A DNA stretch of 64,000 nucleotides, from sequence record OR621298; one strand, written 5' to 3'. The notes beneath the pieces were generated by a model that was not told where the DNA came from, did no database searches, and saw only the letters and a program-made list of their open reading frames with translations. The stretch comes from Escherichia phage vB_EcoD-Elw. The number at the start of each line of letters is the position of its first letter. Position 1 is the stretch's first letter. Below are positions 253 to 31,864 of the stretch, in pieces. The translations under genes were made by a program, and so were the position numbers.

Positions 253-256
253 AATA

Positions 257-1828: not shown

Positions 1829-1845
1829 AGCTAACCTACCTTATT

Positions 1846-1922: not shown

Positions 1923-1931
1923 ATAATTCAT

Positions 1932-2117: not shown

Positions 2118-2144
2118 GCTTGTTTCCTCAGTTATTAATGAAAA

Positions 2145-2217
2145 TGGTATCTGTGGCTGAATTCGATGTCAGCAATGATAGCTGGTTGGCTACCGGTTTA
2201 CTTAACTCTACACAGAA
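2145..2217 (-). tRNA. tRNA-like gene with non-canonical loops (anticodon unresolved)
   Basis: Encoded CCA, acceptor TTCTGTG/CACAGAT (6 bp), T-arm GCTGA-CATCGAAT-TCAGC with 8-nt loop; central stem GGTAG/CTATC with 8-nt loop; ends 2 nt from the next tRNA. Confidence 0.35.
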
Positions 2218-2219
2218 TT

Positions 2220-2297
2220 TGGCGGTTCCTGCTGGATTCGAACCAGCAAACCTCAACTTAACAAGATGCCGCTCTAACCAATTAGAGCTAAGGAACC
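2220..2297 (-). tRNA. tRNA-Asn (anticodon GTT), tentative
   Basis: Perfect acceptor GGTTCCT/AGGAACC, T-arm GCTGG-TTCGAAT-CCAGC, CCA, anticodon loop TTGTTAA; anticodon stem weak (3 of 5 pairs). Confidence 0.6.
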
Positions 2298-2792: not shown

Positions 2793-2813
2793 TACTTCTT
2801 TCCTTTAGTAAAT

Positions 2814-2889
2814 TGGACGACCGCATGAGATTTGAACTCACATAAAAAGGATTTGCAATCCTTCGCCTAAGCCCTTCAGCCAACGGTCG
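2814..2889 (-). tRNA. tRNA-Cys (anticodon GCA)
   Basis: Anticodon arm AAGGA-TTGCAAA-TCCTT (perfect), T-arm GTGAG-TTCAAAT-CTCAT, acceptor CGACCGT/GCGGTCG, CCA. Confidence 0.75.
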
Positions 2890-2958
2890 GTTTATCTTGT
2901 TCTGTCATGTTGCTTCTCCAGTTCAATTTATGTAATTATTATACAGAACTTTTGGAAA

Positions 2959-3231
2959 CTAAGCAACTACATTTTTTAAGAATTTGATGCCTTTCTTTTT
3001 CTTCTTATATTTCCACGTTAATGGATTCTGTCGATTATGAACGCTTGAGATCTTTGTCTCGTCAAAGTTCTTCAATATCATGTAATCACAGGATAATTGT
3101 TCTAGTAGAATGTGATCACCGTCAAAAGCGTATACATAAGGCTGTTGACTAACACGATAATGATAGACTTTGTTAATTCTACGTTTCAGCGACTTATCAG
3201 CGCAGTAAATAAAGAAGTTTTCAGGATGCAT
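2959..3231 (-). CDS. hypothetical protein (about 90 aa)
   Basis: In-frame ATG at 3231 preceded by AAGGAG; the longer ORF would start at TTG 3246. Confidence 0.5.
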   Translation of the reverse strand: MHPENFFIYCADKSLKRRINKVYHYRVSQQPYVYAFDGDHILLEQLSCDYMILKNFDETKISSVHNRQNPLTWKYKKKKKGIKFLKNVVA

Positions 3232-3248
3232 CAGCAGCTCCTTCAATT

Positions 3249-3323
3249 TGGTGCACCCTGTTCGTATCGAACGAACCTCTCAAGCTCTTCAGGCAAGCGC
3301 TAATCCATCTCAGCTAAAGGTGC
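3249..3323 (-). tRNA. tRNA-Phe (anticodon GAA)
   Basis: Acceptor GCACCTT/AGGGTGC, D-arm GCTG..TAGC, anticodon loop CTGAAGA, T-arm GTTCG-TTCGATA-CGAAC, CCA; anticodon stem has two U-U mismatches. Confidence 0.6.
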
Positions 3324-3329
3324 AAATTT

Positions 3330-3406
3330 TGGCAAACCTACTAGGACTCGAACCTAGACCGTACGGTTTTGGAGACCGACATGCTGTCCAGTAACACTCT
3401 AGGAAT
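3330..3406 (-). tRNA. tRNA-Trp (anticodon CCA), tentative
   Basis: T-arm CTAGG-TTCGAGT-CCTAG, CCA, anticodon loop CTCCAAA; acceptor stem has two U-U mismatches, so possibly degenerate. Confidence 0.5.
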
Positions 3407-3414
3407 GCAGAAAT

Positions 3415-3491
3415 TGGCGTCCTGTGCGGGGATCGAACCCGCAAATCCTACCTTGAAAGGGTAGTGACTTTACCAGTTTGTCTAACAGGAC
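3415..3491 (-). tRNA. tRNA-Glu (anticodon TTC)
   Basis: Acceptor GTCCTGT/ACAGGAC, anticodon arm CTACC-CTTTCAA-GGTAG (perfect), T-loop TTCGATC, CCA. Confidence 0.75.
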
Positions 3492-3498
3492 TTAAATT

Positions 3499-3589
3499 TG
3501 GTGTTGGATGATGGAGTCGAACCACCCGAGACCCTTCCGAGTCGGCAGATTTACAGTCTGCTTCGCTACCTCTACGATACTAATCCAAC
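3499..3589 (-). tRNA. tRNA-Tyr (anticodon GTA), long variable arm
   Basis: 91 nt; acceptor GTTGGAT/ATCCAAC, anticodon arm GCAGA-CTGTAAA-TCTGC, long variable arm, T-loop TTCGACT, CCA. Confidence 0.75.
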
Positions 3590-3654
3590 ATATTTAGAAG
3601 TATTCAAAAATTCTCATTTAAACACTTTTAAATATGCTTTCAAATTAGGTAACT

Positions 3655-3663
3655 ATTATACCA
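3655..3663 (-). promoter_or_regulatory. extended -10 promoter (TGGTATAAT) for the tRNA-Tyr/Glu/Trp/Phe cluster
   Basis: Minus-strand TGGTATAAT about 65 nt upstream of the tRNA-Tyr 5' end. Confidence 0.4.
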
Positions 3664-3672
3664 AGTTTTAAG

Positions 3673-3711
3673 GCACTGAGCAAGTCAAATTTTAAAGAAC
3701 TTGCTCAGTGC
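3673..3711. other. perfect 13-bp inverted repeat (stem-loop) downstream of the 3720-3995 gene
   Basis: GCACTGAGCAAGT..ACTTGCTCAGTGC with 13-nt loop; no U-run on either side, so likely a processing or stability hairpin rather than a terminator. Confidence 0.5.
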
Positions 3712-3719
3712 TATATTAG

Positions 3720-3995
3720 TTAGTCGAACTTAGGAGTGACAGTTAAGGAGAACGGAAGTTCGAAAACTTCTTCACCCTCATTACTAACGGTAACTACACG
3801 ACCTTTAAGTTCAGACATTAAAATATCAATATCAGCTTTTGCATCTGGAGCCATGCCAGCTTCAATACATTTAGCTTTAACCTCCGGTAGAAGATCTACG
3901 TTATAGAGATAGAGCCACTCAATCTCACCTTCCCAGTCTTCCCAGGATTTGCAGATTGCACTTTCAATACCAGTTGCTACAACACGATTTTGCAT
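3720..3995 (-). CDS. hypothetical protein (91 aa)
   Basis: ATG at 3995 with GAAGGAG RBS and an upstream TTGCCT-18-TATAAT promoter. Confidence 0.55.
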   Translation of the reverse strand: MQNRVVATGIESAICKSWEDWEGEIEWLYLYNVDLLPEVKAKCIEAGMAPDAKADIDILMSELKGRVVTVSNEGEEVFELPFSLTVTPKFD

Positions 3996-4025
3996 TCGTT
4001 AACTCCTTCATCAATTTATACAACT

Positions 4026-4055
4026 ATTATATCAGAAATTTAAAGCAAAAGGCAA
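4026..4055 (-). promoter_or_regulatory. sigma70-type early promoter
   Basis: Minus strand TTGCCT, 18-nt spacer, TATAAT. Confidence 0.55.
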
Positions 4056-4085
4056 GTACATTTTTAAAAATTCTGTTTGGAGGAG

Positions 4086-4292
4086 CTAAACTCCAGATTC
4101 TTCAGCTAAGTCTAGGCTAATAAGAGTTATAGCCATAATTGCTGCACCGTGTTCTTTTTCTCCGGTGTTTTTAGCAGAGTCTATAATAGTCTTAATCTGT
4201 TCGTAATAGCCTTTTACTTCTTGTTCAATACCTGCCTCGGCTATCATGCCTTTAGTCATGATTCGTTGCATAGTAATTTCACGGTTAGCCAT
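4086..4292 (-). CDS. hypothetical protein (68 aa)
   Basis: ATG at 4292 with GGAGA RBS; start overlaps the stop of the upstream small ORF. Confidence 0.5.
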   Translation of the reverse strand: MANREITMQRIMTKGMIAEAGIEQEVKGYYEQIKTIIDSAKNTGEKEHGAAIMAITLISLDLAEESGV

Positions 4293-4452
4293 GATGTTTC
4301 TCCAGCTTCATTTTTAATAGTTTACAAATGAAATCAACGTCTTCATCTGTACCTAGATCTCTATCTTCAAGAGTTGCCTTGAAGTTTTTAGTCAATTCCA
4401 TGAGGATAACTTCTCTAGAACGACGTGTTGGCGGAGGTGGATGTCTATACAT
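4285..4452 (-). CDS. small hypothetical protein (55 aa, proline-rich N-terminus)
   Basis: ATG at 4452 with AAGGAAA RBS; MYRHPPPPTRRSREVILMEL...; stop overlaps the next start. Confidence 0.4.
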   Translation of the reverse strand: MYRHPPPPTRRSREVILMELTKNFKATLEDRDLGTDEDVDFICKLLKMKLEKHHG

Positions 4453-4467
4453 CTTATTTCCTTAGTT

Positions 4468-4544
4468 TGGTAGGGGTGGTGGGATTCGAACCCACAAAAC
4501 CTGAATTTTAAGTCCAGTACCTATGCCAATTCGATTACACCCCC
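4468..4544 (-). tRNA. tRNA with anticodon TAA (Leu-type anticodon on a short-variable-arm body)
   Basis: Acceptor GGGGGTG/CACCCCT, anticodon arm CTGGA-CTTAAAA-TTCAG, T-arm GTGGG-TTCGAAT-CCCAC, CCA; no long variable arm; D-arm unclear. Confidence 0.55.
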
Positions 4545-4551
4545 GTGTAGT

Positions 4552-4740
4552 TTAGTCAATTACTTTTGAGGCTTCAAGGTAGTCGATATAGTGTATGTTT
4601 TCTACCGTAATCATATAATCTGCCACTTTATCCATAGCTTGGGCTTCAGAGGTAGCTCTGGCTAACCTATATCCTTTTTTATATTCATCCGGGTATTCTC
4701 TATCTTGGATAAACACAACATAAACTATATATAGATCCAT
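4552..4740 (-). CDS. hypothetical protein (62 aa)
   Basis: ATG at 4740 with AGAGG RBS. Confidence 0.5.
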   Translation of the reverse strand: MDLYIVYVVFIQDREYPDEYKKGYRLARATSEAQAMDKVADYMITVENIHYIDYLEASKVID

Positions 4741-4759
4741 TTGTGACCTCTATTTAATT

Positions 4760-4837
4760 TGGTGGCTCCCCGAGGATTCGAACCTACGTACCTTCCGGTT
4801 ATGAGCCGGGTGCTCATACCATATGAGCTTGAGAACC
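4760..4837 (-). tRNA. tRNA with anticodon CAT (elongator Met or Ile-lysidine type)
   Basis: Acceptor GGTTCTC/GGGAGCC (two G-U pairs), anticodon loop CTCATAA, T-loop TTCGAAT with weak T-stem, CCA. Confidence 0.55.
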
Positions 4838-4843
4838 AGAATT

Positions 4844-4932
4844 TGGCGGAAGAAGCGGGAATCGAACCCACAAGGCTATATTTCAAACCGACAGATTAGC
4901 AATCTGCTGCAATACCGTTATGCTATTCTTCC
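4844..4932 (-). tRNA. tRNA-Ser (anticodon GCT), long variable arm
   Basis: 89 nt; acceptor GGAAGAA/TTCTTCC, anticodon loop TTGCTAA, long variable arm, T-arm GTGGG-TTCGATT-CCCGC, CCA. Confidence 0.75.
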
Positions 4933-4947
4933 GAATTTATAAGATAT

Positions 4948-4976
4948 ATTATATTAGAAATTTAGCTTCATAGCAA
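4948..4976 (-). promoter_or_regulatory. sigma70-type early promoter (TTGCTA-17-TATAAT)
   Basis: Minus-strand consensus motif directly upstream of the tRNA-Ser/tRNA-CAT pair. Confidence 0.6.
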
Positions 4977-5472
4977 GAAAATTTTTCAAGTTTTCGGTAG
5001 ACATCTCATCCACATCTACGGGAGAAACAAAGCCGTTTAATTTTCTAGCAAATTTTTCACCCGCAGGATCATTATCTCCGACAGCTACCAATTTAAAAGG
5101 TAGTAATTTCAGTTGCTTTAATAACGCTTTTCCTGGAGAAGAACCCAACATTGCTAGGGCTGGATAACCAGCATTATGTAACGCAACTGCCTTAAATACA
5201 GATTCAGCAATCAATACTACTTTTTCATCTCCATTGAGAGTTTCTAGTCCCCATACACACTGGGTAGTAGAATAAGTAAAGTATTTAGCTTCAAAGGGGC
5301 ACTTACCATGACCTTTTGGAGCAGAAGGATTATAAGTTTGATAGCCCCTCAACATCCCAGAGAAGTCATACAACGGGACTGTTAGCCATCCTTCCGGACT
5401 TAACCAGCAATGATATTTATCTGTATCAAATCCTCTAGATAAGAGGTGCTGTGTTAGCTCATCAACATTCAT
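4954..5472 (-). CDS. TOPRIM-domain protein
   Basis: Start placed at the internal ATG 5472 (AAGAGGA RBS) because the longer ORF runs into its own promoter; conserved Glu (VVLIAESVF) and DxD (VAVGDNDPAG) TOPRIM motifs. Confidence 0.6.
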   Translation of the reverse strand: MNVDELTQHLLSRGFDTDKYHCWLSPEGWLTVPLYDFSGMLRGYQTYNPSAPKGHGKCPFEAKYFTYSTTQCVWGLETLNGDEKVVLIAESVFKAVALHNAGYPALAMLGSSPGKALLKQLKLLPFKLVAVGDNDPAGEKFARKLNGFVSPVDVDEMSTENLKNFLAMKLNF

Positions 5473-5502
5473 ATTTGGTTCCTCTTTCAAATTTATAGAT
5501 AT

Positions 5503-5531
5503 ATTATACAGAGAATTTAGCATTCAAGCAA
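5503..5531 (-). promoter_or_regulatory. sigma70-type early promoter (TTGCTT-17-TATAAT)
   Basis: Minus-strand consensus motif; start site about 25 nt upstream of ATG 5472. Confidence 0.6.
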
Positions 5532-5647
5532 TCAAATTTTTTAACTTTTTAGAGGAAAATCATAGGGCACTTAAGGATAGCAGATAAGTGGTGAGGACCA
5601 AAATTTGTGACCCCACTAAAAATTCAGGGGCAATTTTTAAAGACCCC

Positions 5648-5676
5648 TTGACATTTTCGCTGGGGTAGTGTAAAGT
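5648..5676 (+). promoter_or_regulatory. candidate promoter of the plus-strand island (TTGACA-17-TAAAGT)
   Basis: Perfect -35 TTGACA with 17-nt spacer and weaker -10 TAAAGT; short inverted repeats just upstream. Confidence 0.45.
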
Positions 5677-5737
5677 ATATGTTATGGATGAGTGATCAAA
5701 GAGACACACATTTTCTATATACTAGGAGGTGTCAAAA

Positions 5738-6721
5738 ATGACAGAAGAAGTAGCTAAGAGTCCTGAGACCGTCGCTAGCGTTGCAGCAGAACTGCACCGT
5801 CACGAGGAATCAGATAAGAAAAAGTGGGAGAAGGTCAGAGCCTACGAAGAAAAACATCGTGAACACGATGATGAAGAAGATGATGATGAACATTGTCATA
5901 AATATGGAAAACATAAAATGCAAGAACCAGTAAACGTATTTACTAGTGGCTTCCCTGGCCTACTGGGTGGTTACCCAGCAAACGCAGGTGCTTTCGGTGG
6001 TGAAGGTATGGGACTATTCGGAGCTATCCTAATCGGTGCTCTATTAACAGGCGGATTCGGTGGTTTCGGTGGATTCGGTGGACGTGGTGTAGTTGGTGAT
6101 GGTACCGCAGTTGATGCAGTACTTCAGAACCAAGATACCGCTAGTATTCTAGCAGCTATTAACACTACTCGTACAGAAGCTAACCAGGGTACTGGAGCTG
6201 TTTTAAGCGCAGTTAACAATGGGTTTAGCCAGACATCCCAAAACCAGAGCCGTGATACTCAGTCTGTACTAACTACGATCTATGGTACAGGTGCTAATCT
6301 GTCTAATCAGATCTGTCAGGAAACTCGCAACGTTATTCAGGGTCAGTTCGATCTTTCTCGCCAGATTGATCAATCTTTCGCAGCTAATCAGATAGCTCGT
6401 GCACAAGATAAGTTTGATTCTGCACAGATCGCTTTCCAGCAGACTTTACAAACTAATAACCAGTTTGCCGCTGTTCAGGCTCAGATGTGTGCTAACCAGA
6501 ACTCTCTGGAACGTCAGATCGCTGAATGTTGCTGTGAACTTCAGACTGCGATCGCTGGTGTAACTACTGCGCGTATTCAGGATGAGTTAGATGCATGTCG
6601 CCTACGTGAAGCAATCGCTGCGGGTAACGGTGCTAACGGTCAGGTAATTAATCAAATCGCTGTAAGTCTTGGTGCTATCACTCAGACTCTGGCTGGTCTG
6701 CAGGCTAAACTGCCGGCTTAA
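5738..6721 (+). CDS. glycine-zipper protein with His/acidic N-terminus and Gln/Asn-rich C-terminal half (327 aa), function unknown
   Basis: ATG 5738 with AGGAGG 8 nt upstream (track start 5729 is GTG); hydrophobic GxxxG-repeat segment GLFGAILIGALLTGGFGGFGGFGG; CCC motif; GGT/CGT/CTG-biased codon usage unlike neighbours. Confidence 0.7.
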   Translation: MTEEVAKSPETVASVAAELHRHEESDKKKWEKVRAYEEKHREHDDEEDDDEHCHKYGKHKMQEPVNVFTSGFPGLLGGYPANAGAFGGEGMGLFGAILIGALLTGGFGGFGGFGGRGVVGDGTAVDAVLQNQDTASILAAINTTRTEANQGTGAVLSAVNNGFSQTSQNQSRDTQSVLTTIYGTGANLSNQICQETRNVIQGQFDLSRQIDQSFAANQIARAQDKFDSAQIAFQQTLQTNNQFAAVQAQMCANQNSLERQIAECCCELQTAIAGVTTARIQDELDACRLREAIAAGNGANGQVINQIAVSLGAITQTLAGLQAKLPA

Positions 6722-6742
6722 TATTAAGGGGAGGAGCCCATT

Positions 6743-7159
6743 ATGAGTAAATATGGTTTTGTAAATAACGGACTTAATCAAAGTATGGGCTCCCAGCAGC
6801 CCATTCCGGGTCTGGATAACCCCTACTTACAACAATTGCAACAGCGTTTAGCAGAAGCGCAACAGATGCAGCAACAACTCCAGCAAAACCCTGGAAGTGT
6901 GAGTCCTATGCAAATGATGCAGCAAATGAGCGGGCAGTCGCAAATGCCTCAACAAATGCAGCAACAGGTGCCGCAGCAGCAAGCTCAGCAGCAAACCCAA
7001 CAACCGCAGGTTTCTGCGGAAGGACAGGCAGTACTAGCCCTTTTCGAAGACTTCGCAAAGACAGAGGATGGTAAGCAGCTTGTATCACTTATGGGTAAGT
7101 TTAATAGCTTCTGCCAAAGCCAGGTTGCAAAAGCTCAAAATAGTGGTAATAACTCCTAA
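6743..7159 (+). CDS. Gln-rich low-complexity protein (138 aa), function unknown
   Basis: ATG 6743 with AAGGGGAGGAG RBS; long QQ/MQ runs, ordered C-terminal 50 aa. Confidence 0.7.
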   Translation: MSKYGFVNNGLNQSMGSQQPIPGLDNPYLQQLQQRLAEAQQMQQQLQQNPGSVSPMQMMQQMSGQSQMPQQMQQQVPQQQAQQQTQQPQVSAEGQAVLALFEDFAKTEDGKQLVSLMGKFNSFCQSQVAKAQNSGNNS

Positions 7160-7168
7160 GGAGGAATT

Positions 7169-7363
7169 ATGTGTTGCAGAAAATCTGTTTCGTGCTGCCC
7201 AATGCCTGTAGCACGTTGTTGCTCTCCAGCAATGTTTACGCAAATACCGGCGTTCAATCCGTTTGCCTTTAAGCCTACTCTTATCCTGCCCCCTAGAGTA
7301 GATTTTCAGTCAAGATTGGCCTCCCGTATGGGTGGTTGCTGTAATAAGAGTATATGGTTCTGA
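7169..7363 (+). CDS. Cys-rich small protein (64 aa, four CC dipeptides), function unknown
   Basis: ATG 7169 with AAGGAGG RBS; MCCRKSVSCCPMPVARCCSP...GGCCNKSIWF; followed immediately by an intrinsic terminator. Confidence 0.6.
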   Translation: MCCRKSVSCCPMPVARCCSPAMFTQIPAFNPFAFKPTLILPPRVDFQSRLASRMGGCCNKSIWF

Positions 7364-7379
7364 AGAACCAAACAATAAA

Positions 7380-7413
7380 GCCCCTAGTCGAAAGACTTAG
7401 GGGCTTTTCTTTT
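7380..7413 (+). terminator. rho-independent terminator ending the plus-strand island
   Basis: Stem GCCCCTA/TAGGGGC with 11-nt loop, then TTTTCTTTT. Confidence 0.7.
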
Positions 7414-7420
7414 ATCTTAA

Positions 7421-7458
7421 ATACAGAAAAGCCCTGCGCTCTCCAGGAAACGCAGGGC
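7421..7458 (-). terminator. rho-independent terminator after the SPFH gene
   Basis: Stem GCCCTGCG/CGCAGGGC followed on the minus strand by TTTTCTGTAT. Confidence 0.65.
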
Positions 7459-7483
7459 TTATTTCAGATGTTACATGCGGGTA

Positions 7484-8431
7484 TTACTTATTACGCATAT
7501 CCATAATCATTTGGCCATCATAGCCAGTGCCAACCACAGTCTGCGGTACACCACCTTGGTATTTCTGAGCACGAATCATTTCAACTTCCAGTTGCTTCCA
7601 GCGAATCATCTCAGGAGTAATGGTACGTTGCAACGCGGCGTTAGCTTCAGCTTCTTTCTTAGCTGCGTACAGTTTGGCATCTGCGTCACGCTCATTGGCA
7701 ATAGCTTGGTTATTACGAGCTTCGCGATCTGCTTCTGCTTGTTTAACCTTCTGCTGTGCTTCTTGTTCAACACGAGCCAGTTCAGCTTTCGCAGCATTAA
7801 CTTGCTCTTCACGAACTTTGGTATTCTGTACCTGTTCCATGATTACCGGTGGCAAAGTAATATCCTGAAGGAATACCTGCTTAACTGTATAACCATATGG
7901 GCGTGCATACTCTTCAACTTCCTGTTGAATTGCAGTTTGCAATTGAGCCTGAATTTTAGCATCAAACAAATCTTGTGCTTTAGGTACAGACTTACCAAAC
8001 TCACGAATAGTAGACAGTAATTTTTCAGTTACATATTTGTCTAGCGCTTGATCCTGAGTACCTGCGTTAATACGGTTAATCGGTGCCTTAGAACCATCAA
8101 ACTGCAACATAACAGTCAGGTCAACAGTGGATTTAAACTTATCCTGACTAGGAACCTGAAGTTTATCTAATTTTAGAGCAATATCTTTAGTACTAAAAGT
8201 ATCGAAAGAAGCAAAAGGATTTACAATATGAAAGCCGGGTAGTACTGGGCTAGGGTCAACTTTACCCAGGAAAGTCTGGGTTTTAACAGTACCGTCTTGA
8301 ACAACGGTATAAGAGTTAAAGGCTAGAATCAAGCCTGCTAAACCAACTATAGCACCAATACCCCAACGTTTAATAGTACGAATTACTTTCTGCTCAGAAG
8401 TCAGTTCTTTCATATTTTTAGTATTAAACAT
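7484..8431 (-). CDS. SPFH/band-7 (stomatin/prohibitin/HflC-like) membrane protein
   Basis: 315 aa; N-terminal hydrophobic helix (WGIGAIVGLAGLILAF), central SPFH-like region, C-terminal Ala/Glu/Lys/Gln coiled coil; ATG 8431 with AAGGAAA RBS. Confidence 0.8.
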   Translation of the reverse strand: MFNTKNMKELTSEQKVIRTIKRWGIGAIVGLAGLILAFNSYTVVQDGTVKTQTFLGKVDPSPVLPGFHIVNPFASFDTFSTKDIALKLDKLQVPSQDKFKSTVDLTVMLQFDGSKAPINRINAGTQDQALDKYVTEKLLSTIREFGKSVPKAQDLFDAKIQAQLQTAIQQEVEEYARPYGYTVKQVFLQDITLPPVIMEQVQNTKVREEQVNAAKAELARVEQEAQQKVKQAEADREARNNQAIANERDADAKLYAAKKEAEANAALQRTITPEMIRWKQLEVEMIRAQKYQGGVPQTVVGTGYDGQMIMDMRNK

Positions 8432-8465
8432 ATATTTCCTTTGTTTTAGTTACAGTTAATAAAAT

Positions 8466-8540
8466 TGGCCGAGGTGACAGGATTCGAACCTGCATAAAGG
8501 AATTTAGAAGACTCCTGCCTCTCCATTAGACTACACCCCG
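8466..8540 (-). tRNA. tRNA-Arg (anticodon TCT)
   Basis: Acceptor CGGGGTG/CACCTCG, anticodon arm GGAGT-CTTCTAA-ATTCC, T-arm GCAGG-TTCGAAT-CCTGT, CCA. Confidence 0.75.
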
Positions 8541-9042
8541 TTTAAGTATTTTTAAGAACTCTCGTAAAAACTCTTAAAAATACAGACGATACCGGGAGAG
8601 TCATAAGTCTCACTCATTAAGTATTTCAAGACAAAATACAGTAACGTCTATTATTTTCCAGTTTAAGTCAAGGTGACTTAGTGGTTATGTCCTGCGGTAT
8701 ACTGAGGACTCGGTTAGGATTGGGGTCATGACTTCCCGCCTTTTGCTGCTACTCAACAGGAGTTATCGCGAATTACCTGTGCTATTGTGCACCATTAGTG
8801 ACATCTCTCATGTCAGCATTTCCCACTTTGTGGATAGCTTGAAAAACTACTCCGATATGGAGAAAGAACTTCACTATCCTAGAATACCTTCTAAAGTTCT
8901 TCTTTAGCCTGGACATAGTTAAATCGTAATAAAACTATTCAGCAGACTAGTTGGTTAGTCTGGAACCAACTACCGCGTGGTTTAGGCAGTGCGCAACTAA
9001 CCTCGGAAGCTTTTACGTTAAAAGCATCAGTTATCCAGTTCT

Positions 9043-9114
9043 TACCGACCGTAGGATTCGAACCTACATCTTCCACCAGTTACGGCTTGATAATACCAAT
9101 TATACTAGGACGGC
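9043..9114 (-). pseudogene. degenerate tRNA-like element (no CCA, no anticodon stem)
   Basis: Canonical T-arm GTAGG-TTCGAAT-CCTAC and 6-bp acceptor GCCGTCC/GGTCGGT, but no convincing anticodon arm and no encoded CCA. Confidence 0.35.
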
Positions 9115-24961: not shown

Positions 24962-25151
24962 GGGTTTAAACTCCGCTTTGGAAAACGCATTAATGCAGCA
25001 CTGGGAAACTGGCTATAAGGATGGTGTTGAATCCTGCGCTACTATGCTAGAAGTTATTGCTAATACCTTAATGGAGAAAGGCAATAAAGAATTAGCTGAG
25101 CTATTAGACAGTATTGGGCAAAACTTCAGAGAACAGGTGAAAAATGCGTAG
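24930..25151 (+). CDS. hypothetical protein (73 aa)
   Basis: ATG 24930 with GAGGAGAAA RBS. Confidence 0.5.
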   Translation: MAFSKPMLPDKGLNSALENALMQHWETGYKDGVESCATMLEVIANTLMEKGNKELAELLDSIGQNFREQVKNA

Positions 25152-25968
25152 ATTAATTATTATTAGCGGTGCAGGTTTGAGTGTTGAAAGTGGTGTACGA
25201 GCTTTTCGTACTGATACTGCTAGTGGTAAAGCACTGTGGGATGATTATGATCTAGAAGAAGTATGTAATATTCATGCCTTTCGTGGTAATTTTTATCATA
25301 AAACCCATATGTTTTACAACAAGCGTCGTGAAGAGCTAAAAACTGTTGAACCTAACCTTGCGCATCTTCGTATTGGTGAGTGGTATAAACAATACCCAGG
25401 TCAAGTAGTAAACTTGACTACCAATGTTGATGACCTTATTGAACGTGCTGGCGTTCCACATAGTGACATTCTGCACATTCACGGATATTTAAAAGAGGTT
25501 GTTGTAGCTGACAGCTACAATAGTAGTAATAAACGAATTATTGATGTTGGGTATAACTCTATTGACCCAGATGATTATAAATGGGTTAAACCTAATGTAA
25601 TCTTCTTTGGTGAGCATGCTCCAGCATATACAGAAATGTACAATGTTTTTGATGGTATTACCAGTCAAGATATGATCATTGTGGTTGGTTGCTCTAACCA
25701 AGTAATTAACTTCTACTGGGAATTATTTCCTGTTCTTAATTTGACTGCTGCCAAATTAATGGTAGTTAACTACTATGATAGTGCCCTAGCGACAGAGCCG
25801 GGCTACCAAGGTATGACTCGTAGTGAGATGTACCAGCTGGAAGAACGCGGTATCCCTTACTGGAGTAAAGGGGCTGTAGATGCCTTCAGTGACCCTGATT
25901 TTATTGCTCGTGTAGAAGCTCATCTAGAGGGTAGACCTTATATGCCGGGGAAACAAATATGTCCATAA
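25144..25968 (+). CDS. Sir2-family (sirtuin-like) NAD-dependent protein without the Zn-ribbon
   Basis: 274 aa; GAGLSVESGVRAFR, TTNVDDLIERAG, IHGYL and PNVIFFGE match sirtuin Rossmann motifs; no CxxC...CxxC zinc module. Confidence 0.7.
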   Translation: MRRLIIISGAGLSVESGVRAFRTDTASGKALWDDYDLEEVCNIHAFRGNFYHKTHMFYNKRREELKTVEPNLAHLRIGEWYKQYPGQVVNLTTNVDDLIERAGVPHSDILHIHGYLKEVVVADSYNSSNKRIIDVGYNSIDPDDYKWVKPNVIFFGEHAPAYTEMYNVFDGITSQDMIIVVGCSNQVINFYWELFPVLNLTAAKLMVVNYYDSALATEPGYQGMTRSEMYQLEERGIPYWSKGAVDAFSDPDFIARVEAHLEGRPYMPGKQICP

Positions 25969-26141
25969 TTAAATCTGTGTATACACACCCTGATGATATA
26001 TTTGTATGGGCGGACGGTAGTTGGTGTTATCGCTGTGAGTTGTGGGAAATGGACTATAAATCCGATGACTATGGTGTTATATATGTGGATACGGTTGAGT
26101 ATGATACGTTCTTAGAAAGGAACAAAAATGGAAATAAGTAA
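25959..26141 (+). CDS. hypothetical protein (60 aa)
   Basis: ORF overlapping neighbours by a few codons; weak RBS. Confidence 0.4.
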   Translation: MSIIKSVYTHPDDIFVWADGSWCYRCELWEMDYKSDDYGVIYVDTVEYDTFLERNKNGNK

Positions 26142-26634
26142 TACTCCAATTATTTTTCTAGACATTGATGGGGTGCTCAATTCGAGCATCTCCCACCATC
26201 ATGCACCTGATGATGAAAAGATTTTCTTTGGAAGTGACTGGGTTTTCAAACCACTTCTCAAGGCTTTTCAGGACTTTATTCGTCCTTCTCCGATAATGAT
26301 TGTTGGAGTATCCTCATGGTTCTCTGTCAGGAATGAGATGGAGAACGTTCAGATTATGACCGGATTAGGTCTTATCGATCGTTTTCTTGGTACAACGGAT
26401 TTTACCGGGGGTGGATTATCTAGGGGTAATTCTGTTCTTCGCTTCGTTGAAAAGCATAAGCTCAAACATTGGTGTGTGCTGGATGATGCCGGTGCTATGA
26501 TGTATCAGTATCCAACGGTTATAGTCAATGGTAGAACAGGAATAAATCTTCAGGATTTAAAAGCTGTTAGCTATATGCTAGAATTTAGCCCAGATCTTGA
26601 AATGTGTAAATCCTTACAACAATTTAAGGTGTAA
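26128..26634 (+). CDS. HAD-superfamily phosphatase-like protein
   Basis: 168 aa; N-terminal motif I IIFLDIDGVLN (DxDGV); GAAAGGAAC RBS. Confidence 0.6.
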   Translation: MEISNTPIIFLDIDGVLNSSISHHHAPDDEKIFFGSDWVFKPLLKAFQDFIRPSPIMIVGVSSWFSVRNEMENVQIMTGLGLIDRFLGTTDFTGGGLSRGNSVLRFVEKHKLKHWCVLDDAGAMMYQYPTVIVNGRTGINLQDLKAVSYMLEFSPDLEMCKSLQQFKV

Positions 26635-26636
26635 AT

Positions 26637-27065
26637 ATGTTCAATAATGTATTCTCTAAAGAAGCTAACCCAATTTTGGTTAACTTTTGGCGTACTCTCC
26701 CGGCTAGCCTGTATAATGAGGCTATTAACTCCTTGAAAATATGGTGTGAGAATAACGAAATCTCCTTTGCTTTTAAAGATGATATTGATGAGGCCCCCTG
26801 TATTGGTCTAGTTGTGCAGGTAGAGGAGGGTCTTGAAGAGATTGTGGGCTGGAAAGAGTTAGACGAAATGGGCTTAGTTTTTGCGTTAAATTATAAGCTG
26901 TTTATGCCTGCTAAGCATCGCCTAGTTGTTAACTATAAAACTAGTGAATCTCCTGGTTTTCAGGTTAATGAACGTTATGGTTGGTCTTACTCACCGGAAG
27001 AAGTAAATGATGGTATCCAAAAACTTCGTCGTTTTGGTTATCAAATTCCGGGTTTAACCGCCTAA
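26637..27065 (+). CDS. hypothetical protein, paralogue A of a tandem pair
   Basis: Shares blocks with the next gene (EAPCIGLVVQ vs DDPCIGVFLS; MGLVFALNYKLF vs MGLIVALNFSIF; YQIPGL vs YVPGL). Confidence 0.6.
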   Translation: MFNNVFSKEANPILVNFWRTLPASLYNEAINSLKIWCENNEISFAFKDDIDEAPCIGLVVQVEEGLEEIVGWKELDEMGLVFALNYKLFMPAKHRLVVNYKTSESPGFQVNERYGWSYSPEEVNDGIQKLRRFGYQIPGLTA

Positions 27066-27074
27066 GGGGGCATA

Positions 27075-27467
27075 ATGGAACAAGTATATTGGCGTCAGAT
27101 TGATCCTAGTTTGGTGAAGCGTGCGGAGAAGCTGCTACAACGTTGGTTGGTGGTAAGACAAGTCTCCTTCACTTTTCCGGAGCAGCAAACGGATGATCCA
27201 TGCATTGGCGTTTTCCTGTCTGGATATGCCGGGGAATGGGAATTGGATTGGAATGAATTGTCTGCTATGGGCTTGATTGTTGCCCTAAACTTCTCTATAT
27301 TCCATCCACGTGGTTTGGCCATATGTCGTGTGCCTGATGACGGTTGTTCGCCCCATCTTTTACAGGTGGAAGATGATATTTGGGAGTACACTCCAGATAT
27401 TCTCGCAGAAGCTAAAGAACAATTAAATCGTGTTGGGATTTATGTTCCGGGCTTAAATGATGGATGA
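27075..27467 (+). CDS. hypothetical protein, paralogue B of a tandem pair
   Basis: Paralogue of 26637-27065; AAGGGGG RBS. Confidence 0.6.
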   Translation: MEQVYWRQIDPSLVKRAEKLLQRWLVVRQVSFTFPEQQTDDPCIGVFLSGYAGEWELDWNELSAMGLIVALNFSIFHPRGLAICRVPDDGCSPHLLQVEDDIWEYTPDILAEAKEQLNRVGIYVPGLNDG

Positions 27468-27491
27468 TTTTTATTAGCTAAACTCTGATTA

Positions 27492-27515
27492 CCGAGTCAT
27501 TTTGGCTCGGTTTTA
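27492..27515 (+). terminator. rho-independent terminator
   Basis: Stem CCGAG/CTCGG with 9-nt loop followed by TTTT. Confidence 0.55.
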
Positions 27516-27558
27516 TCCGTACTTAAGACCAATGATAGCACCATCCGGAAAATTTTAC

Positions 27559-27587
27559 TTGCATGATGCCCAAAATCTTGATATAAT
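27559..27587 (+). promoter_or_regulatory. sigma70-type promoter (TTGCAT-17-TATAAT)
   Basis: Consensus spacing; start site about 490 nt upstream of the next CDS. Confidence 0.55.
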
Positions 27588-28084
27588 ATTTATATTGAAT
27601 TGAGAGACATTAGTAAAAATTGATTTTGCTAATTTTTCTTGTTTACAATCCGCGATACGGAACAGTTAGGCTGCCCCATTAAGGGTTGTTTTAACTATTA
27701 CTAGTGTTTATATTGCATTAGTTAATCTTCAATTAAGTGATCTGTGTACCCTGAATTCGGAAAGGTAAATCCAAACCGTGCATATTTAGCTCGTTATATA
27801 GGCAGAGTTTTATATGGGGGTGCGAACGAAAAGAGCAGCGAATGGCGGCACGTACAGTAGTCACCTACCAATAGGATAGTGAGGACAAATAGAATCGGCT
27901 TAGCGGCCAATGACCTAGGTTCTATTCTGTATATGAGCGAAGAGAGCACAGCACTGAGATATGATAACTTATTCATATTGCTTGATGATAATTAATGTTT
28001 ACGTAAATAGTAGTAATAGTTGTTCTATTCTTTCTGAATAGTCCTAAAGAAAAGATTTCGATTAACCAACACAGGAGTATTGTT

Positions 28085-30874
28085 GTGTTTTCTATTCTCC
28101 AAGGTCACGCCGGATTTTCTCGTGATTTAGCAACAGGTATTTGGCGAGAAATCAAAGCGGAAGATTATACCTTTGCCAAGCGATTCTCGAAAAAGCATCC
28201 AGAAGGTAAACCAGCTTCTATGCCCTTCAAATTTGATGTAATAGAAGAGCATGACCCGCAAAGCCTTGCCGAAATGTTACCACTTATGAGACGTTTAACG
28301 TCTGACCCTCATATCGTTGCGGTACGAGGTCGATGTCTTGCACCTAAAAATAACGTGCGACGTAAGAAAGGTAACTTTAATGTATCTAATCCTAGTAATA
28401 TTATTGCTATGGACGTGGATGGTATCCTAGATACCGGTGGGTATGACAAGTTTAACCTTGTTGGTATGGCCCGCCACATTATTAAGATGTTGAATAGTAT
28501 TAGTGAGGACATGTTCCCTCTTGATGCAGGCTTTATAGCTCATGCATCGTCTTCGGCTGGGCTTAAACCAGGTATCCGAATGCACTTAATGCTAGAATCT
28601 AACGTCAAGGTAACTCAGGGTCAGTTAAAGTTCTTATTTACATCTATCAACGATAGTAGTAAGCAAAAATTTGGTTTTGATATTGCCGACTTAGCTTATT
28701 ATTCATCTGTCCAGCTCCACTATTTTGCCGACCCCTTATTTAGTGATGGTATTGTTGATCCGTTTAAAGCGGAGAGTAAGCCACGTCTGGTGTATGTTAA
28801 AGGTTCGAAAGTAAATTTGCCCAATAATCTGGTTGACTATGAAACAACTAGAGGGGAGTTTAAGGAAGAGTTTTATTCTTTACTTGATCAAATTAAAGGC
28901 AAAAAGATCGCGTCTGATAAAGTAGAAGAAACCATCAGCGAATTGGAAGAAGCTGAGGATGGGGTGTACCTGCGTATTATCCCCAAACTATACCATAGAG
29001 CATTAGAGGATGGTGTTGATTTTGCATGGCTAGAACGTGAGATTAAACCCGCTTTATCTGAATATATTGCAACTAAAGATAACAGTCGTAATATTCAAGA
29101 TTACTTTAATAACGGTCGTAAGCAGGCTCTCAAAGCGTTTGTTAATAATTCTAAACGTGAGATTCCATTAAATCTGAAAGGTGTTCCGCTCAAGAAGTTA
29201 GAAGTGGATTCTCCACCAGAAGTTCCGTACCTGAAGATTAACATTGTGCCTCCAAAAGGCCATATAACATTTGTTAAGGCAAGTCTTGGTACTGGTAAAA
29301 CTACGGCAGTAACTAAATGGCTGGACGCAGGTGTTCTTCCTGGCAACTTTTTAGCAGTTACAAATACTAGAGCACTGGTATCTTCAAACGCTAAGAAATT
29401 TAGCGCAGGACAATATGATAAGTCTGTAGATATGCTCAACTTTAAACGTGGAGCTATTGATCGTATGTCCACAACTATTCACTCTTTGCATAAGTTCAAA
29501 AGTTTTATTGGTCAAATAGATACCATTTTTATTGATGAATGTGATGCTGTAATGAATGATCTATTATTCGCACCTGTTGTTAAGCAACGTCGCGAATGTA
29601 TTCAAGTTCTACGTGACATCCTCATGACAGCTAAAACTGTAATTCTATCAGATGGTGATATTAGTGCCGAAACTATTGAAGCATATGGTTCTCTAATTGA
29701 TTTTGATAAACCAGTAGCATTTTATAATCATCACCGTAAGATGCTGTCAAAAGCTCATGCTTATGAGTTCCCGGATGAGTCCAGTATTTGGGTTGCACTT
29801 CAGACTTCTCTAGAGATGGGTGAGAAATCTATCCTAGTATCTGATTGTGGGCCGGATGAACTGAATGAGAAGGGCATGGCGTTGCGTCGTAATACGGGTG
29901 CATTAGTTAAGGAAATCCACTCAAACTCTACGTCTGATGTAGATATTAGACGTATTCTGGATTACACAACTAATGAGCTAATTGACCAACAAATTGATTG
30001 CTTATTATGTAGTCCATCTGTAACGAGTGGTGTTGACTTTAACTATTTTGATAACGTATTCGTTATCACTAGAACTAGCAACCAAGCGCCAAACATGCGT
30101 TTCCAAGCAATCAGGCGCGACCGTGGTGCTCAGAATATCTATTATTTTATTGATAAATCCACTAGTGGGTTCTCCGCAGGTTCTGAACAATATAATATTG
30201 ATGAAGGTTGGCTGGAGTTAGCACAGCAATTATACGCACGTCGCAGAGAACTAGAATCTAGGAACTATACTAGTACTTTACGTTATTACTTGCTTGATCA
30301 GGGTGCAACTATTGATATTTTCAGCGAAAGCTGGGGAACTATTGAAGGTGCTGGTAAAGAATACACAGAAGAGCGAATCAAAGCTATCCTACATTCAACT
30401 CCGGATTACTGTGCACCACGTCATGCGGATGCGTATGAGGCTAAACTACTTCTTGTTCGCTATTATCATCTTGAGTCTATTAAAGATGTAACAGTTGAGC
30501 ATGTTGAACAATATATCAAAGATAAACCGAATGATCGAGCTGCATTCTTCCATAAGATGCACGAGATGTTCTGGGAAGATATTAAGAAGTGTTCAAATGT
30601 GACCATTAAACCATTCATAGAGGCTCTGAAAGGTAAGAAGAAAGACTTCTTCCTTAAAACAGGTCAGAGTGCTAACCCAAAATATGCTAGAATGTATCTT
30701 GGTATGATGGGTATTGGTAAGGATATGAACACTGAAAATATTGTAGACTGGTACAGAACCTATTGTAAAATCGAGTGTATGCCAATCCCATATAAGTTTA
30801 TGACTGATGAGGAGAAACATATGCATGATGAAGCAATGGCAGAGCTAGGTGCTAGAAATGACAGTGAAGAATAA
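28085..30874 (+). CDS. large P-loop NTPase, putative replication initiation / primase-helicase-like protein (929 aa)
   Basis: GTG start with AGGAG RBS; Walker A KASLGTGKTT and Walker B IFIDECDAV in the central region; N-terminal 300 aa with acidic motifs (IIAMDVDG, FDIADL) loosely resembling primase/polymerase-type domains. Confidence 0.65.
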   Translation: MFSILQGHAGFSRDLATGIWREIKAEDYTFAKRFSKKHPEGKPASMPFKFDVIEEHDPQSLAEMLPLMRRLTSDPHIVAVRGRCLAPKNNVRRKKGNFNVSNPSNIIAMDVDGILDTGGYDKFNLVGMARHIIKMLNSISEDMFPLDAGFIAHASSSAGLKPGIRMHLMLESNVKVTQGQLKFLFTSINDSSKQKFGFDIADLAYYSSVQLHYFADPLFSDGIVDPFKAESKPRLVYVKGSKVNLPNNLVDYETTRGEFKEEFYSLLDQIKGKKIASDKVEETISELEEAEDGVYLRIIPKLYHRALEDGVDFAWLEREIKPALSEYIATKDNSRNIQDYFNNGRKQALKAFVNNSKREIPLNLKGVPLKKLEVDSPPEVPYLKINIVPPKGHITFVKASLGTGKTTAVTKWLDAGVLPGNFLAVTNTRALVSSNAKKFSAGQYDKSVDMLNFKRGAIDRMSTTIHSLHKFKSFIGQIDTIFIDECDAVMNDLLFAPVVKQRRECIQVLRDILMTAKTVILSDGDISAETIEAYGSLIDFDKPVAFYNHHRKMLSKAHAYEFPDESSIWVALQTSLEMGEKSILVSDCGPDELNEKGMALRRNTGALVKEIHSNSTSDVDIRRILDYTTNELIDQQIDCLLCSPSVTSGVDFNYFDNVFVITRTSNQAPNMRFQAIRRDRGAQNIYYFIDKSTSGFSAGSEQYNIDEGWLELAQQLYARRRELESRNYTSTLRYYLLDQGATIDIFSESWGTIEGAGKEYTEERIKAILHSTPDYCAPRHADAYEAKLLLVRYYHLESIKDVTVEHVEQYIKDKPNDRAAFFHKMHEMFWEDIKKCSNVTIKPFIEALKGKKKDFFLKTGQSANPKYARMYLGMMGIGKDMNTENIVDWYRTYCKIECMPIPYKFMTDEEKHMHDEAMAELGARNDSEE

Positions 30875-31091
30875 AAAATGGGAAACAAGGAAGTTCCCAG
30901 TAAAAGAACGTAAAGTTCCTGTTTATGATACTTCGGAAAAGCTATGTAGGGTGGTACCACGTAGATTAGCTGGTATCCCTAACATATCCGAGTGGTTACT
31001 TAAACAACGGAAAACAAACGTGTCTCTTCGCATCGGCTTTGAATTAGATAAAGTCTATGCTGAACTTGCTTCTTTGCTCAAGGAATCGTAA
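30858..31091 (+). CDS. hypothetical protein (about 77 aa)
   Basis: Start placed at ATG 30858 (AGGTG RBS); overlaps the end of the 929-aa gene. Confidence 0.45.
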   Translation: MTVKNKKWETRKFPVKERKVPVYDTSEKLCRVVPRRLAGIPNISEWLLKQRKTNVSLRIGFELDKVYAELASLLKES

Positions 31092-31099
31092 AAATTTAT

Positions 31100-31128
31100 T
31101 TGCTTTCAGGAAAAATTTTCTGTATAAT
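31100..31128 (+). promoter_or_regulatory. sigma70-type promoter (TTGCTT-17-TATAAT, extended TG)
   Basis: Consensus motif followed by a GAGAGAGGAG RBS. Confidence 0.65.
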
Positions 31129-31159
31129 AGATTCATAAATTTGAGAGAGGAGTTTAAAT

Positions 31160-31864
31160 ATGGCCGGTTCTCGCAGAAAGAAACATATCCATGAAATCCC
31201 GGATGAAGTCTTTAAAAAAGTTATAGAGCATCTGGAGAACGGTGGTACTAAGAAAGCAGCTTGTGAGATGCTCGGCGTATCATCCAATCCAACTATGGAA
31301 AGGATGATTGAAGAGTGGCAAGACCGCCAGATTCAAGTTGCCGAAATGAAGAAAAAGAAACGTGGCACACTCATTGAAGGTATTGAGTTGGCCAACGTTA
31401 TTGAACAGTATTTATCTGGTGATTCTTTTGAAGAGATTGCCGATCGTAATTATCGCTCTGTAGCAATGGTTAAATCTGTTCTGGAACGCTATGGTGCTCT
31501 GCTTCGTTTGAACGATATTGTAGACCCGTTGAATCCTCCTATTATTCCTGATGATGCTGTAGCAGAAGAATTTGAAGTTGGTGAGCTTGTTTGGGTTCCT
31601 GGATACCAGTGTATCGGTGAAATCAAAAAAGCAATGGATAATCCTGTTGGTTGCTACCGTGTATGGCTTCTATCGGAAGGCAAACAACAGAACGTTCATT
31701 ATATGAATTATGAGCTGGCTTCTGTTAAACACCTGGAAAAGTTAGGAGTTGATGTAAAATCTCTGGGGTATAAATGGACTCGGGAAGAAGTCATTACGTT
31801 GATTAACGAAGCTGTTAAGGCCGCCTTGAAACTTGATAAAGAAAAAGGAAAACGCCGTGAGTAG
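31160..31864 (+). CDS. putative helix-turn-helix DNA-binding protein (234 aa)
   Basis: N-terminal HTH-like segment GGTKKAACEMLGVSSNPTMERMIEEW; basic C-terminus. Confidence 0.6.
   Translation: MAGSRRKKHIHEIPDEVFKKVIEHLENGGTKKAACEMLGVSSNPTMERMIEEWQDRQIQVAEMKKKKRGTLIEGIELANVIEQYLSGDSFEEIADRNYRSVAMVKSVLERYGALLRLNDIVDPLNPPIIPDDAVAEEFEVGELVWVPGYQCIGEIKKAMDNPVGCYRVWLLSEGKQQNVHYMNYELASVKHLEKLGVDVKSLGYKWTREEVITLINEAVKAALKLDKEKGKRRE

Follow-up and report, generated by a model that had tools for sequence, protein, structure and literature searches.

In the ColE1 plasmid (RNA II) and at oriF/oriG of phage T4, a non-coding RNA of about 0.5 kb is made from a strong promoter within a replication module, and ColE1 RNA II needs a conserved fold at the origin. 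Structured leaders before initiator genes are common in plasmids: the R1 repA/CopT, IncI-alpha repZ and pT181 repC leaders, like the P4 alpha-operon leader with its CI RNA, place a long fold directly before the initiator gene. Here we describe a locus that resembles both arrangements in Escherichia phage vB_EcoD-Elw (sequence record OR621298), of which a stretch of 64,000 nucleotides (nt), called the window, was analysed; positions refer to this stretch, read 5′ to 3′. About 490 nt separate an early promoter from D2/obp, which encodes a UL9/Rep-type superfamily 2 (SF2) helicase of 929 amino acids (aa) (28085-30874, plus strand, GTG start). We consider it very likely that this gap encodes a large, multi-domain folded plus-strand RNA of ~490 nt. 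Judged by sequence comparison, the RNA is conserved in the T5-like (Markadamsvirinae), Klebsiella and Pectobacterium Demerecviridae. T5 is a classical model phage, yet to our knowledge neither the sequence of its replication origin nor the in vivo role of D2 has been established.

The leader shares its strong promoter and its predicted ~0.5-kb non-coding transcript with ColE1 RNA II and T4 oriF/oriG. It differs in having no RNA I-type antisense promoter, no sequence or Rfam similarity, and a transcript that would run on into a helicase gene; T5 also possesses an initiator candidate in D2, and ColE1 replicates without an initiator of its own. Like incompatibility and immunity determinants, the leader has type-specific variants between conserved flanks. 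The plasmid and P4 leaders, however, use a countertranscript or a processed small RNA together with attenuation or occlusion of the Shine-Dalgarno (SD) sequence, none of which was found in the leader, and copy-number or immunity control has no obvious role in the strictly lytic T5. The large phage-associated RNAs GOLLD and ROOL, and other large bacterial RNAs such as OLE, HEARO/omega RNA and raiA, are comparable in their size class of at least 400 nt and their multi-branched, covariation-supported architecture, as RNAs that are phage-encoded and of uncharacterised function. Unlike them, the leader lies ~18 kb from the tRNA cluster, would be fused to an mRNA at least in T5-like phages instead of free-standing, and gives no covariance-model match. 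Herpesvirus oriS with UL9 (the OriS* hairpin) is comparable in that D2 shares the UL9 helicase core and a folded single strand is a possible ligand. In contrast to oriS, the leader shows no conserved UL9-box-like inverted repeats around an AT spacer and, being G-U rich, looks RNA-like, and the N-terminal half of D2 has no detectable similarity to the UL9 DNA-binding domain.

Results

Aligned across seven T5-like phages, the leader is nearly invariant in the first ~100 nt after the promoter and in the last ~75 nt before D2, and its middle ~300 nt exist in two versions of equal length: type A, found in the window, T5 and EPS7, and type B, found in Lindwurm, DaisyDussoix and many others. The type A and type B distal domains have no mutual blastn match, and essentially only GGCTTAGCGGCC is common to both. 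The fold was tested on nine leaders, drawn from type A, type B, a Klebsiella phage (L035) and the Pectobacterium phages DU_PP_V (L037) and My1 (L044), whose D2 proteins are 67-93% identical to that of the window over the N-terminal 400 residues. On a plain MAFFT alignment of these leaders RNAalifold predicts 65 pairs in 13 helices, and 31 of the pairs are changed on both sides. We compared this structure with two controls, one in which the 3′ partner was slid by 1-3 columns and one based on shuffling (500 shuffles). Standard pairs fill 91.8% of the observed cells, against 37-44% (slid) and 79.5% (shuffled); the 31 double-change pairs compare with 9-15 and 16.5±2.4, respectively; and the covariation score of 0.467 compares with at most 0.145 and with 0.243, none of the 500 shuffles reaching the observed value. 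A hand-specified structure of the 5′ domain is paired in 95.3% of cells, against 38-51% when slid. Base pairs are kept by compensatory substitution beyond the level of both controls, as expected of a structured RNA, and substitutions in the gap follow base-pairing, not codon logic.

For the stem that closes the distal domain, the strongest duplex forms at the equivalent position in 10 of 12 sequences, Klebsiella L035 and Proteus L038 being the exceptions. The segment just after the conserved motif has its 3′ partner 53-65 nt ahead of the D2 start in T5-like and Pectobacterium phages and farther upstream in Providencia phages, and the duplex free energy of -25 to -34 kcal/mol compares with shuffled-arm means of -17 to -21.5. 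The stem contains an A-U to G-C compensatory change between the types and many G-U pairs. Covariation is also present inside each type, with 6 compensatory pairs and 7 consistent one-sided changes among 12 distinct type A sequences and 7 and 10, respectively, within type B; each distal type is therefore independently supported by its own compensatory changes.

G-U combinations occupy 103 of 571 cells (~18%) and A-C combinations 11, a count biased by the prediction of the structure on the plus strand. The consensus fold has -29.5 kcal/mol and 65 pairs on the plus strand and -18.6 kcal/mol and 45 pairs on the minus strand. These figures bear on the reading that the element acts purely as DNA, as a double- or single-stranded origin or protein-binding region with DNA hairpins, in the manner of HSV OriS*/UL9 or plasmid single-strand origins, or as a recombination junction, its RNA being functionless. 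We regard this as quite improbable: the G-U to A-C ratio is RNA-like, since G-T pairs destabilise DNA; every lineage has a conserved strong promoter pointing straight into the element; and there are no iterons. Covariation alone cannot separate the two, however, as the displaced non-template strand has the sequence of the RNA, and a DNA element would suit a position beside a UL9/Rep-type helicase at the genome centre, with near-invariant flanks that act as recombination junctions for a variable cassette. The TAGCG core of the invariant loop may also resemble the CS-6 motif of ssoA origins.

By its anatomy, the leader would be transcribed from T5P32 and form the 5′ part of the D2 mRNA in T5-like phages. 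T5P32 is an early sigma-70 promoter (27559-27587, plus strand) with a -35 TTGCAT, a 17-nt spacer and an extended -10 TGaTATAAT, whose TG lies at 27579-27580 and whose predicted transcription start is ~27594. It is annotated in three T5 records (AY587007, AY543070 and AY692264), in AY587007 under the name 'putative early promoter T5P32', and is kept at the same place in all relatives compared; the T5 records annotate nothing between it and D2. A preliminary description of the locus, made from the letters of the window, had placed a 'consensus' promoter here. The promoter is present, with a TATAAT -10, and the wording was slightly generous for a -35 that matches the consensus at only 3 of 6 positions, which is also why a simple promoter scanner missed it. 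Upstream, an intrinsic terminator (27491-27516, plus strand), made of the inverted repeat ACCGAGTCA/TGGCTCGGT and a T-run, ends the operon of T5.105-107 homologues, and a rho-independent terminator is annotated at the equivalent site in the T5 and BF23 records. This terminator closes the upstream operon, so the leader is a separate transcription unit. A scan of the leader plus strand found no terminator, and for that reason the leader should be continuous with D2 in T5-like phages. The regulatory leader suggested in the preliminary description is thus borne out in its anatomy, the RNA of T5-like phages running into the D2 ribosome-binding site (RBS); the 'small RNA' offered beside it does not suit a molecule of ~490 nt. 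A second promoter-like sequence, TTGATT-18-TACAAT (9/12), lies at 27620-27649 within the near-invariant 5′ leader, and its start would precede the GAUAC motif. It is probably no promoter, as its -10 is lost, by eye, in the Pectobacterium phages.

The whole structured leader spans 27594-28084, beginning at the predicted transcription start and ending one base short of the D2 start codon, and all its elements lie on the plus strand. Its 5′ hairpin, P1 (27602-27640), has an outer stem GAGAGA/UUUCUU (27602-27607/27635-27640) and an inner stem AUUAGUAAAA/UUUUGCUAAU (27609-27618/27624-27633); 95% of its cells are paired, and both sides are changed in 6 of 16 pairs among T5-like, Klebsiella and Pectobacterium phages. 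Domain II (27645-27689) is a hairpin with internal loops that contains the near-invariant motif GAUACGGAACAGUUAGGCUGCCCCAU (27654-27679), which occurs once in the window and recurs in the Klebsiella phage and in DU_PP_V and My1. Pairwise identity in this block is 0.99 across 29 T5-like genomes; it is 95% paired, but its pairs are mostly invariant. The closing stem, an inverted repeat of ~35 bp, joins a 5′ strand at 27693-27732 to a 3′ strand at 27982-28021, with 27693-27711 facing 28003-28021 and 27715-27732 facing 27982-27998.

Between the two strands lies the branched distal domain (27733-27981), which in the window is of type A and forms the GC-richer part of the leader. GC content is 0.45-0.49 at 27750-27949 against 0.22-0.36 on both sides, in a genome with 61% AT overall, and the GC-richer parts of the gap had been remarked on in the preliminary description. 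A distal stem, AAUAGAAUC/GGUUCUAUU (27888-27926; arms 27888-27896/27918-27926), encloses the mini-hairpin GGCU-UAGC-GGCC (27897-27908); together they have both sides changed in 7 of 8 pairs and 96-97% of cells paired. CUUAGCGG is the sole distal sequence invariant in all lineages, and CTTAGCGG is invariant in 10 lineage representatives. Beyond the closing stem, minimum free energy (MFE) folds contain a 3′ hairpin, CUAUUC-UUUCU-GAAUAG (28025-28041), which is not a terminator because no U-tract follows it; equivalents seen by eye are CUAUC/GAUAG in the Klebsiella phage, CUUUCC/GGAAAG in DU_PP_V and UUCUUU/AAAGAA in a Providencia phage. The SD sequence AGGAG (28073-28077) and the D2 GTG start (28085-28087) together occupy 28073-28087.

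Further pairings were considered. The leader's two best-conserved motifs, GGCUGC in domain II (27670-27675) and GCGGCC in the CUUAGCGG module (27903-27908), complement each other over 6 nt with one G-U; the pairing is retained by wobble in the My1 and L034 variants, with zero double compensatory changes. The two sequences could make a long-range tertiary contact or both be bound by the same protein. We rejected a pairing of GGAACAGUU with an arm of the closing stem as an alternative fold, since by eye it is unconserved in the window and the Pectobacterium phages, and extra copies of GCTTAGCGGC at 35005 and 36248 are within chance expectation.

The junction of the RNA with D2 bears on a purely cis-regulatory role, in which the mRNA leader would set the amount of D2 with no direct part in replication. 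It could do so through autogenous binding of D2 or binding of another phage or host protein, through protection of the long untranslated stretch from RNase E and Rho, or through a structural switch at the RBS. We hold this to be possible, if doubtful. Besides the uninterrupted run into the RBS, it is favoured by an identity of 0.87-0.93 in the 3′ leader and RBS region and by the RNAalifold pairing of UUCUUG (27636-27641) with the SD sequence CAGGAG, which is 94% paired across lineages. The same pyrimidine tract pairs alternatively with the 5′ GAGAGA of P1, which would allow a three-part switch. The RNA is also G-rich, C-poor and highly structured, and such RNA would disfavour Rho loading. Yet computed SD accessibility ranges from 0.03 to 0.73 across lineages with different predicted partners, the helix between SD and anti-SD has almost no compensatory change, and with 490 nt and at least 12 helices the leader is far above known translational operators. 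A cis role is also hard to match with the Proteus-type promoter between RNA and D2 and with the terminator-like hairpins before obp in two distant relatives, both described below, and a consensus scan found no conserved antisense promoter.

Several more specific regulators found no support. For a conserved SD-sequestering switch, predicted SD accessibility is inconsistent across lineages. A riboswitch is at odds with the same inconsistency, with the lack of a leader terminator and with distal domains that have only CUUAGCGG in common between types A and B; since the types share almost no sequence there, a conserved ligand pocket in the distal domain is unlikely. An antisense-RNA-controlled rep leader would need a minus-strand promoter, and a crude consensus scan of 27594-28300, which weak promoters might escape, found no promoter-like site on that strand.

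Mean pairwise identity across 29 distinct T5-like genomes is 0.94-1.00 at 27610-27709, in the 5′ leader, and ~0.99 over 27610-27684. This exceeds the D2 coding sequence (0.82-0.95), with upstream genes at 0.52-0.82 and the central leader (27710-28009) at 0.58-0.80. The comparison across relatives that the preliminary description had proposed thus returned strong covariation, and the 5′ leader as the most conserved stretch locally. Type B shares GAGAAGUG and AGUUGCCACCCC with the distant Klebsiella and Pectobacterium phages, and both are lost from type A.

Some leaders carry an optional 97-nt insertion between P1 and domain II, at a point equivalent to 27633/27634 of the window (~726-830 in Kenya-K44, L007; also in L019, L025 and L041). 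It has a duplicated TTTTTCTT at its flanks and its own hairpin fold, leaves P1 intact, occurs once per genome in 51 T5-like phage records and has no Rfam match. At the four loci examined it sits in type A leaders (L007 and L019) and type B leaders (L025 and L041); its presence in both types indicates that it moves by recombination or insertion.

These properties could also belong to a large trans-acting non-coding RNA, for instance a host-takeover or anti-defence decoy, a scaffold or a ribozyme, that shares the D2 promoter and is released by processing. Large size, an ornate multi-branch fold, strong covariation and a strong early promoter speak for it, and an optional structured module found in 51 phages is what modular non-coding RNAs show. 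The 99% conservation of the 5′ 100 nt, above that of neighbouring coding DNA, suggests sequence-specific recognition, and in some lineages a separate D2 promoter or terminator-like hairpins follow the RNA. We nevertheless think a trans-acting RNA unlikely: it leaves the strict positional linkage to obp and the co-inheritance with the D2 N-terminal half unexplained, the T5-like leaders have no discrete 3′ end signal, and there is no Rfam similarity.

Biochemical work has characterised D2 as a bipolar SF2 helicase with a core like that of herpesvirus UL9 (PMC3632103). It is annotated as a 'replication origin binding protein', with the PHROG label 'replication origin binding', and matches Pfam Herpes_ori_bp (PF02399) at residues 389-533; residues 392-708 match CyRepA1, a plasmid replication family of NCBIfam, at E 6e-35 but short of its curated cut-off; its only PDB matches are herpesvirus origin-binding protein (OBP) chains. 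The N-terminal 390 aa match no Pfam family at E up to 10. A homologue search with the N-terminal part returned two fragments only, so that it yielded no deep alignment or domain assignment, and a single-sequence AlphaFold model of residues 1-390 has a pLDDT of 39.5 and is unusable.

Against the type B phage L028, the window is 93-100% identical over the upstream 1.6 kb that flanks the leader, 40-49% in the distal domain, ~80% over the first ~1300 nt of D2, which encode its non-helicase N-terminal half, and ~95% over the rest of the gene and beyond. The type A2 phage L021 shows the reverse pattern, with divergent flanks and a similar cassette. Across 29 genomes, distal-domain distances correlate with those of the D2 N-terminal half (r=0.88) and the 3′ leader (r=0.88), against r=-0.02 for the upstream genes, 0.01 for the 5′ leader and 0.21 for the D2 helicase half. 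Because these distances correlate, the N-terminal half of D2 forms one recombination module with the 3′ leader and the distal domain, and the pattern marks the near-invariant 5′ domain as its left junction. We find moderate support in this for a leader that functionally belongs with D2, and the co-inheritance is compatible with an RNA or DNA whose specificity is matched to the N-terminal domain of D2. Right after D2, identity between the window and T5 falls to 27-55% (window 30785-31285; T5 L015/L001 6859-7377). There T5 has an HNH_3 homing-type endonuclease that overlaps the D2 stop, and the window instead has an 80-aa open reading frame (ORF) and a 234-aa ORF with a weak helix-turn-helix (HTH) match. 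The HNH endonuclease was considered as a part of the module and rejected, as it is absent from the window.

A covariance model of the 5′ domain (R1) detects the versions in Klebsiella and Pectobacterium phages (E 1e-10 to 1e-13) and misses the Proteus and Providencia leaders, which score E ~4 at the expected position. When these two groups of leaders are inspected by eye, the 5′ hairpin, the closing stem and the CUUAGCGG module are still present. As R1 misses the Proteus, Providencia, Vibrio and Aeromonas versions, we make no claim of family-wide homology. A promoter-led non-coding gap of 0.5-1.4 kb nonetheless precedes obp in every Demerecviridae genome examined, measuring 590 nt in My1, ~710 nt in Vibrio Luma, ~730 nt in Vibrio D302, ~640 nt in Vibrio PG07, ~1100 nt in Vibrio phi 3 (L046 426-1528; 50% GC) and at least 1400 nt in Aeromonas TS3 (L049 1-1408), the last two being gene-free or unannotated. 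The MFE z-scores of the distant gaps are mixed (+1.3 to -4.2), and the relatives of the phi 3 gap are all near-identical. The TS3 and phi 3 stretches could be much larger relatives of the T5 leader RNA. TS3 holds two hairpin loops of CUUAGCGG type (at 297 and 541). In PG07 (L048), a ~56-nt direct repeat, GACTATCACTTTGTAGCCTCAATCCTCGGATTGTGTGAGTCAGTTAACTTCTGTCG, occurs in two copies upstream of obp (~1038-1093 and ~1148-1203), which could be a duplicated RNA module or initiator binding sites.

Some lineages separate the RNA from D2. Proteus-type phages have a second promoter, TTGACA-18-TATAAT, with perfect hexamers between the RNA and D2 (L038/L039, 1934-1964), so that D2 is transcribable there without the leader. 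Vibrio D302 has two terminator-like hairpins before obp, and in Aeromonas TS3 a long hairpin followed by T6 (L049 ~1283-1330) looks terminator-like in the sequence. The second promoter and these hairpins indicate that the RNA is not merely an untranslated region (UTR) in those lineages. Wider searches added nothing: a profile scan of genome contigs with the D2 alignment found no relatives, a second scan of viral contigs found no new lineage, and a metagenome pattern scan with GAACAGTNNGGCTGCNNCA was too permissive, the second motif being present in only one of the loci screened (L184).

Searches with Rfam 15 returned only tRNAs in the window at the gathering threshold. On 27400-28200 the best match had E 5.9 and 16.6 bits against a gathering score of 43, and with the limit relaxed to E 10 neither ten relatives nor the insertion variant matched any family. 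The unmatched families include GOLLD, ROOL, HEARO, 6S, Y-RNA-like RNAs, riboswitches, group I/II introns and ribozymes. Comparison with plasmids found no sequence similar to the leader, and literature searches found no description of it. By these searches, the RNA tied to the D2 helicase is large, supported by covariation and new to the catalogues. The Rad anti-retron gene of T5-like phages was set aside; it encodes a protein, lies in the tRNA region and is unrelated to this locus.

The gap is bounded by the T5.107 homologue (27075-27467) and by the 929-aa GTG gene at 28085-30874, which the preliminary description had located correctly and which is D2/obp. The same description had seen no convincing plus-strand ORF in between, and the longest there (27588-28084) indeed encodes 38 aa. 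A protein gene hidden in the gap, whether the antisense ORF or one of the short annotated ORFs, is scarcely credible. A few records, such as PMBT27 and D302, do annotate small hypothetical proteins there, but none of the ORFs keeps its position, frame or sequence from type A to type B or in farther relatives, and the type A, type B, Klebsiella, Pectobacterium, Proteus and Providencia versions share no ORF of at least 30 aa. The antisense 60-aa ORF already noticed (27794-27976, minus strand, ATG start) exists; the preliminary description saw no obvious promoter or RBS for it, and the scan detected no promoter on its strand. It was rejected as a gene: its EPS7 version has 38 aa and a TTG start, and type B, Klebsiella and Pectobacterium phages have no counterpart. 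As this ORF is not conserved, no conserved protein gene fills the gap in relatives.

The phage belongs to the genus Tequintavirus (T5-like), and over 1.6 kb the locus is 99.6% identical to Salmonella phage MET_P1_100_107 and ~96% to T5. The family assignment follows from a T5-type tRNA gene cluster on the minus strand (91-9114), with 13 genes by ARAGORN and 15 by Rfam; the Rfam tRNA at 3505-3586 overlaps the ARAGORN tRNA-Tyr, and those at 4763-4837 and 9043-9114 are extra to ARAGORN. The upstream operon (25144-27467) encodes a Sir2-family protein (25144-25968), an HAD domain like that of the 'Swiss Army Knife' RNA-repair proteins (26128-26634) and a pair of DUF7415 paralogues (26637-27065 and 27075-27467), and is a possible RNA-repair or anti-defence cluster.

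Discussion

An origin or pre-primer RNA that works with D2, an expression leader for D2 and a trans-acting non-coding RNA appear roughly equally likely to us. We tentatively propose that the leader provides the RNA for a module that initiates replication with the help of D2. The folded RNA would arise from early transcription of the region, and this RNA together with its template DNA would mark or prime the site where the D2 helicase starts replication. The locus would then be an origin activated by transcription, its structured RNA serving as a pre-primer or forming an R-loop, as in ColE1 RNA II or T4 oriF/oriG. Recognition would rest on the CUUAGCGG hairpin and the near-invariant 5′ domain, and each variable distal domain would fit its cognate D2 N-terminal domain. 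This proposal is favoured by the position of the leader beside a Rep/UL9-type helicase, its family-wide positional linkage, the module shared with the D2 N-terminal half, and the separate D2 promoters or terminator-like hairpins of some lineages. The T5 locus lies at 48.5-48.9% of the genome, and electron microscopy placed T5 origins 'near the centre' (bioRxiv 10.1101/866236).

A number of observations weigh against such an initiation module. The co-inheritance could reflect mere adjacency within one recombination block, and distal-domain divergence is not proportional to D2 divergence, because type A has lost motifs that type B keeps. An R-loop origin needs no heavy selection on the fold of its RNA. 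The repeat check suggested in the preliminary description, which had listed an origin-type region among its options, found no conserved iterons of the kind expected of an iteron/DnaA-type origin: the sole three-copy repeat, the 10-mer GTTCTATTCT, is lost in type B. Inspection by eye revealed no DnaA-box-like array or clear unwinding element, although AT-rich stretches exist. R1 finds no match in the Vibrio and Aeromonas regions, whose homology is unproven, and literature searches found no transcript, structure-probing or replication data for the locus. Binding of D2 to an origin has never been shown (PMC3632103), and retron recombineering suggests a dominant unidirectional replication of T5 from one genome end (PMC10055335).

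In its fullest form the initiation module would give the T5 family an RNA-based origin. The D2 N-terminal domain would recognise a ~0.5-kb RNA that acts as pre-primer or R-loop at a central origin; types A and B would be RNA-plus-initiator specificity cassettes exchanged by recombination at the 5′ domain; and the RNA would reach ~1.3 kb in the Vibrio and Aeromonas relatives. We put this forward as a speculation that is rather unlikely to hold.

Well-supported bacterial and phage RNAs of such size and complexity are rare, and past examples have proved to be ribozymes, guides or large assemblies. More than 500 T5-like genomes have been sequenced, in which this region is unannotated or filled with spurious small ORFs. 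Its distal domain, with two alleles on a conserved architecture, constitutes a natural swap experiment, and a conserved ~490-nt RNA tied to D2 is a testable candidate for a part in the initiation of T5 replication or in the supply of its initiator.

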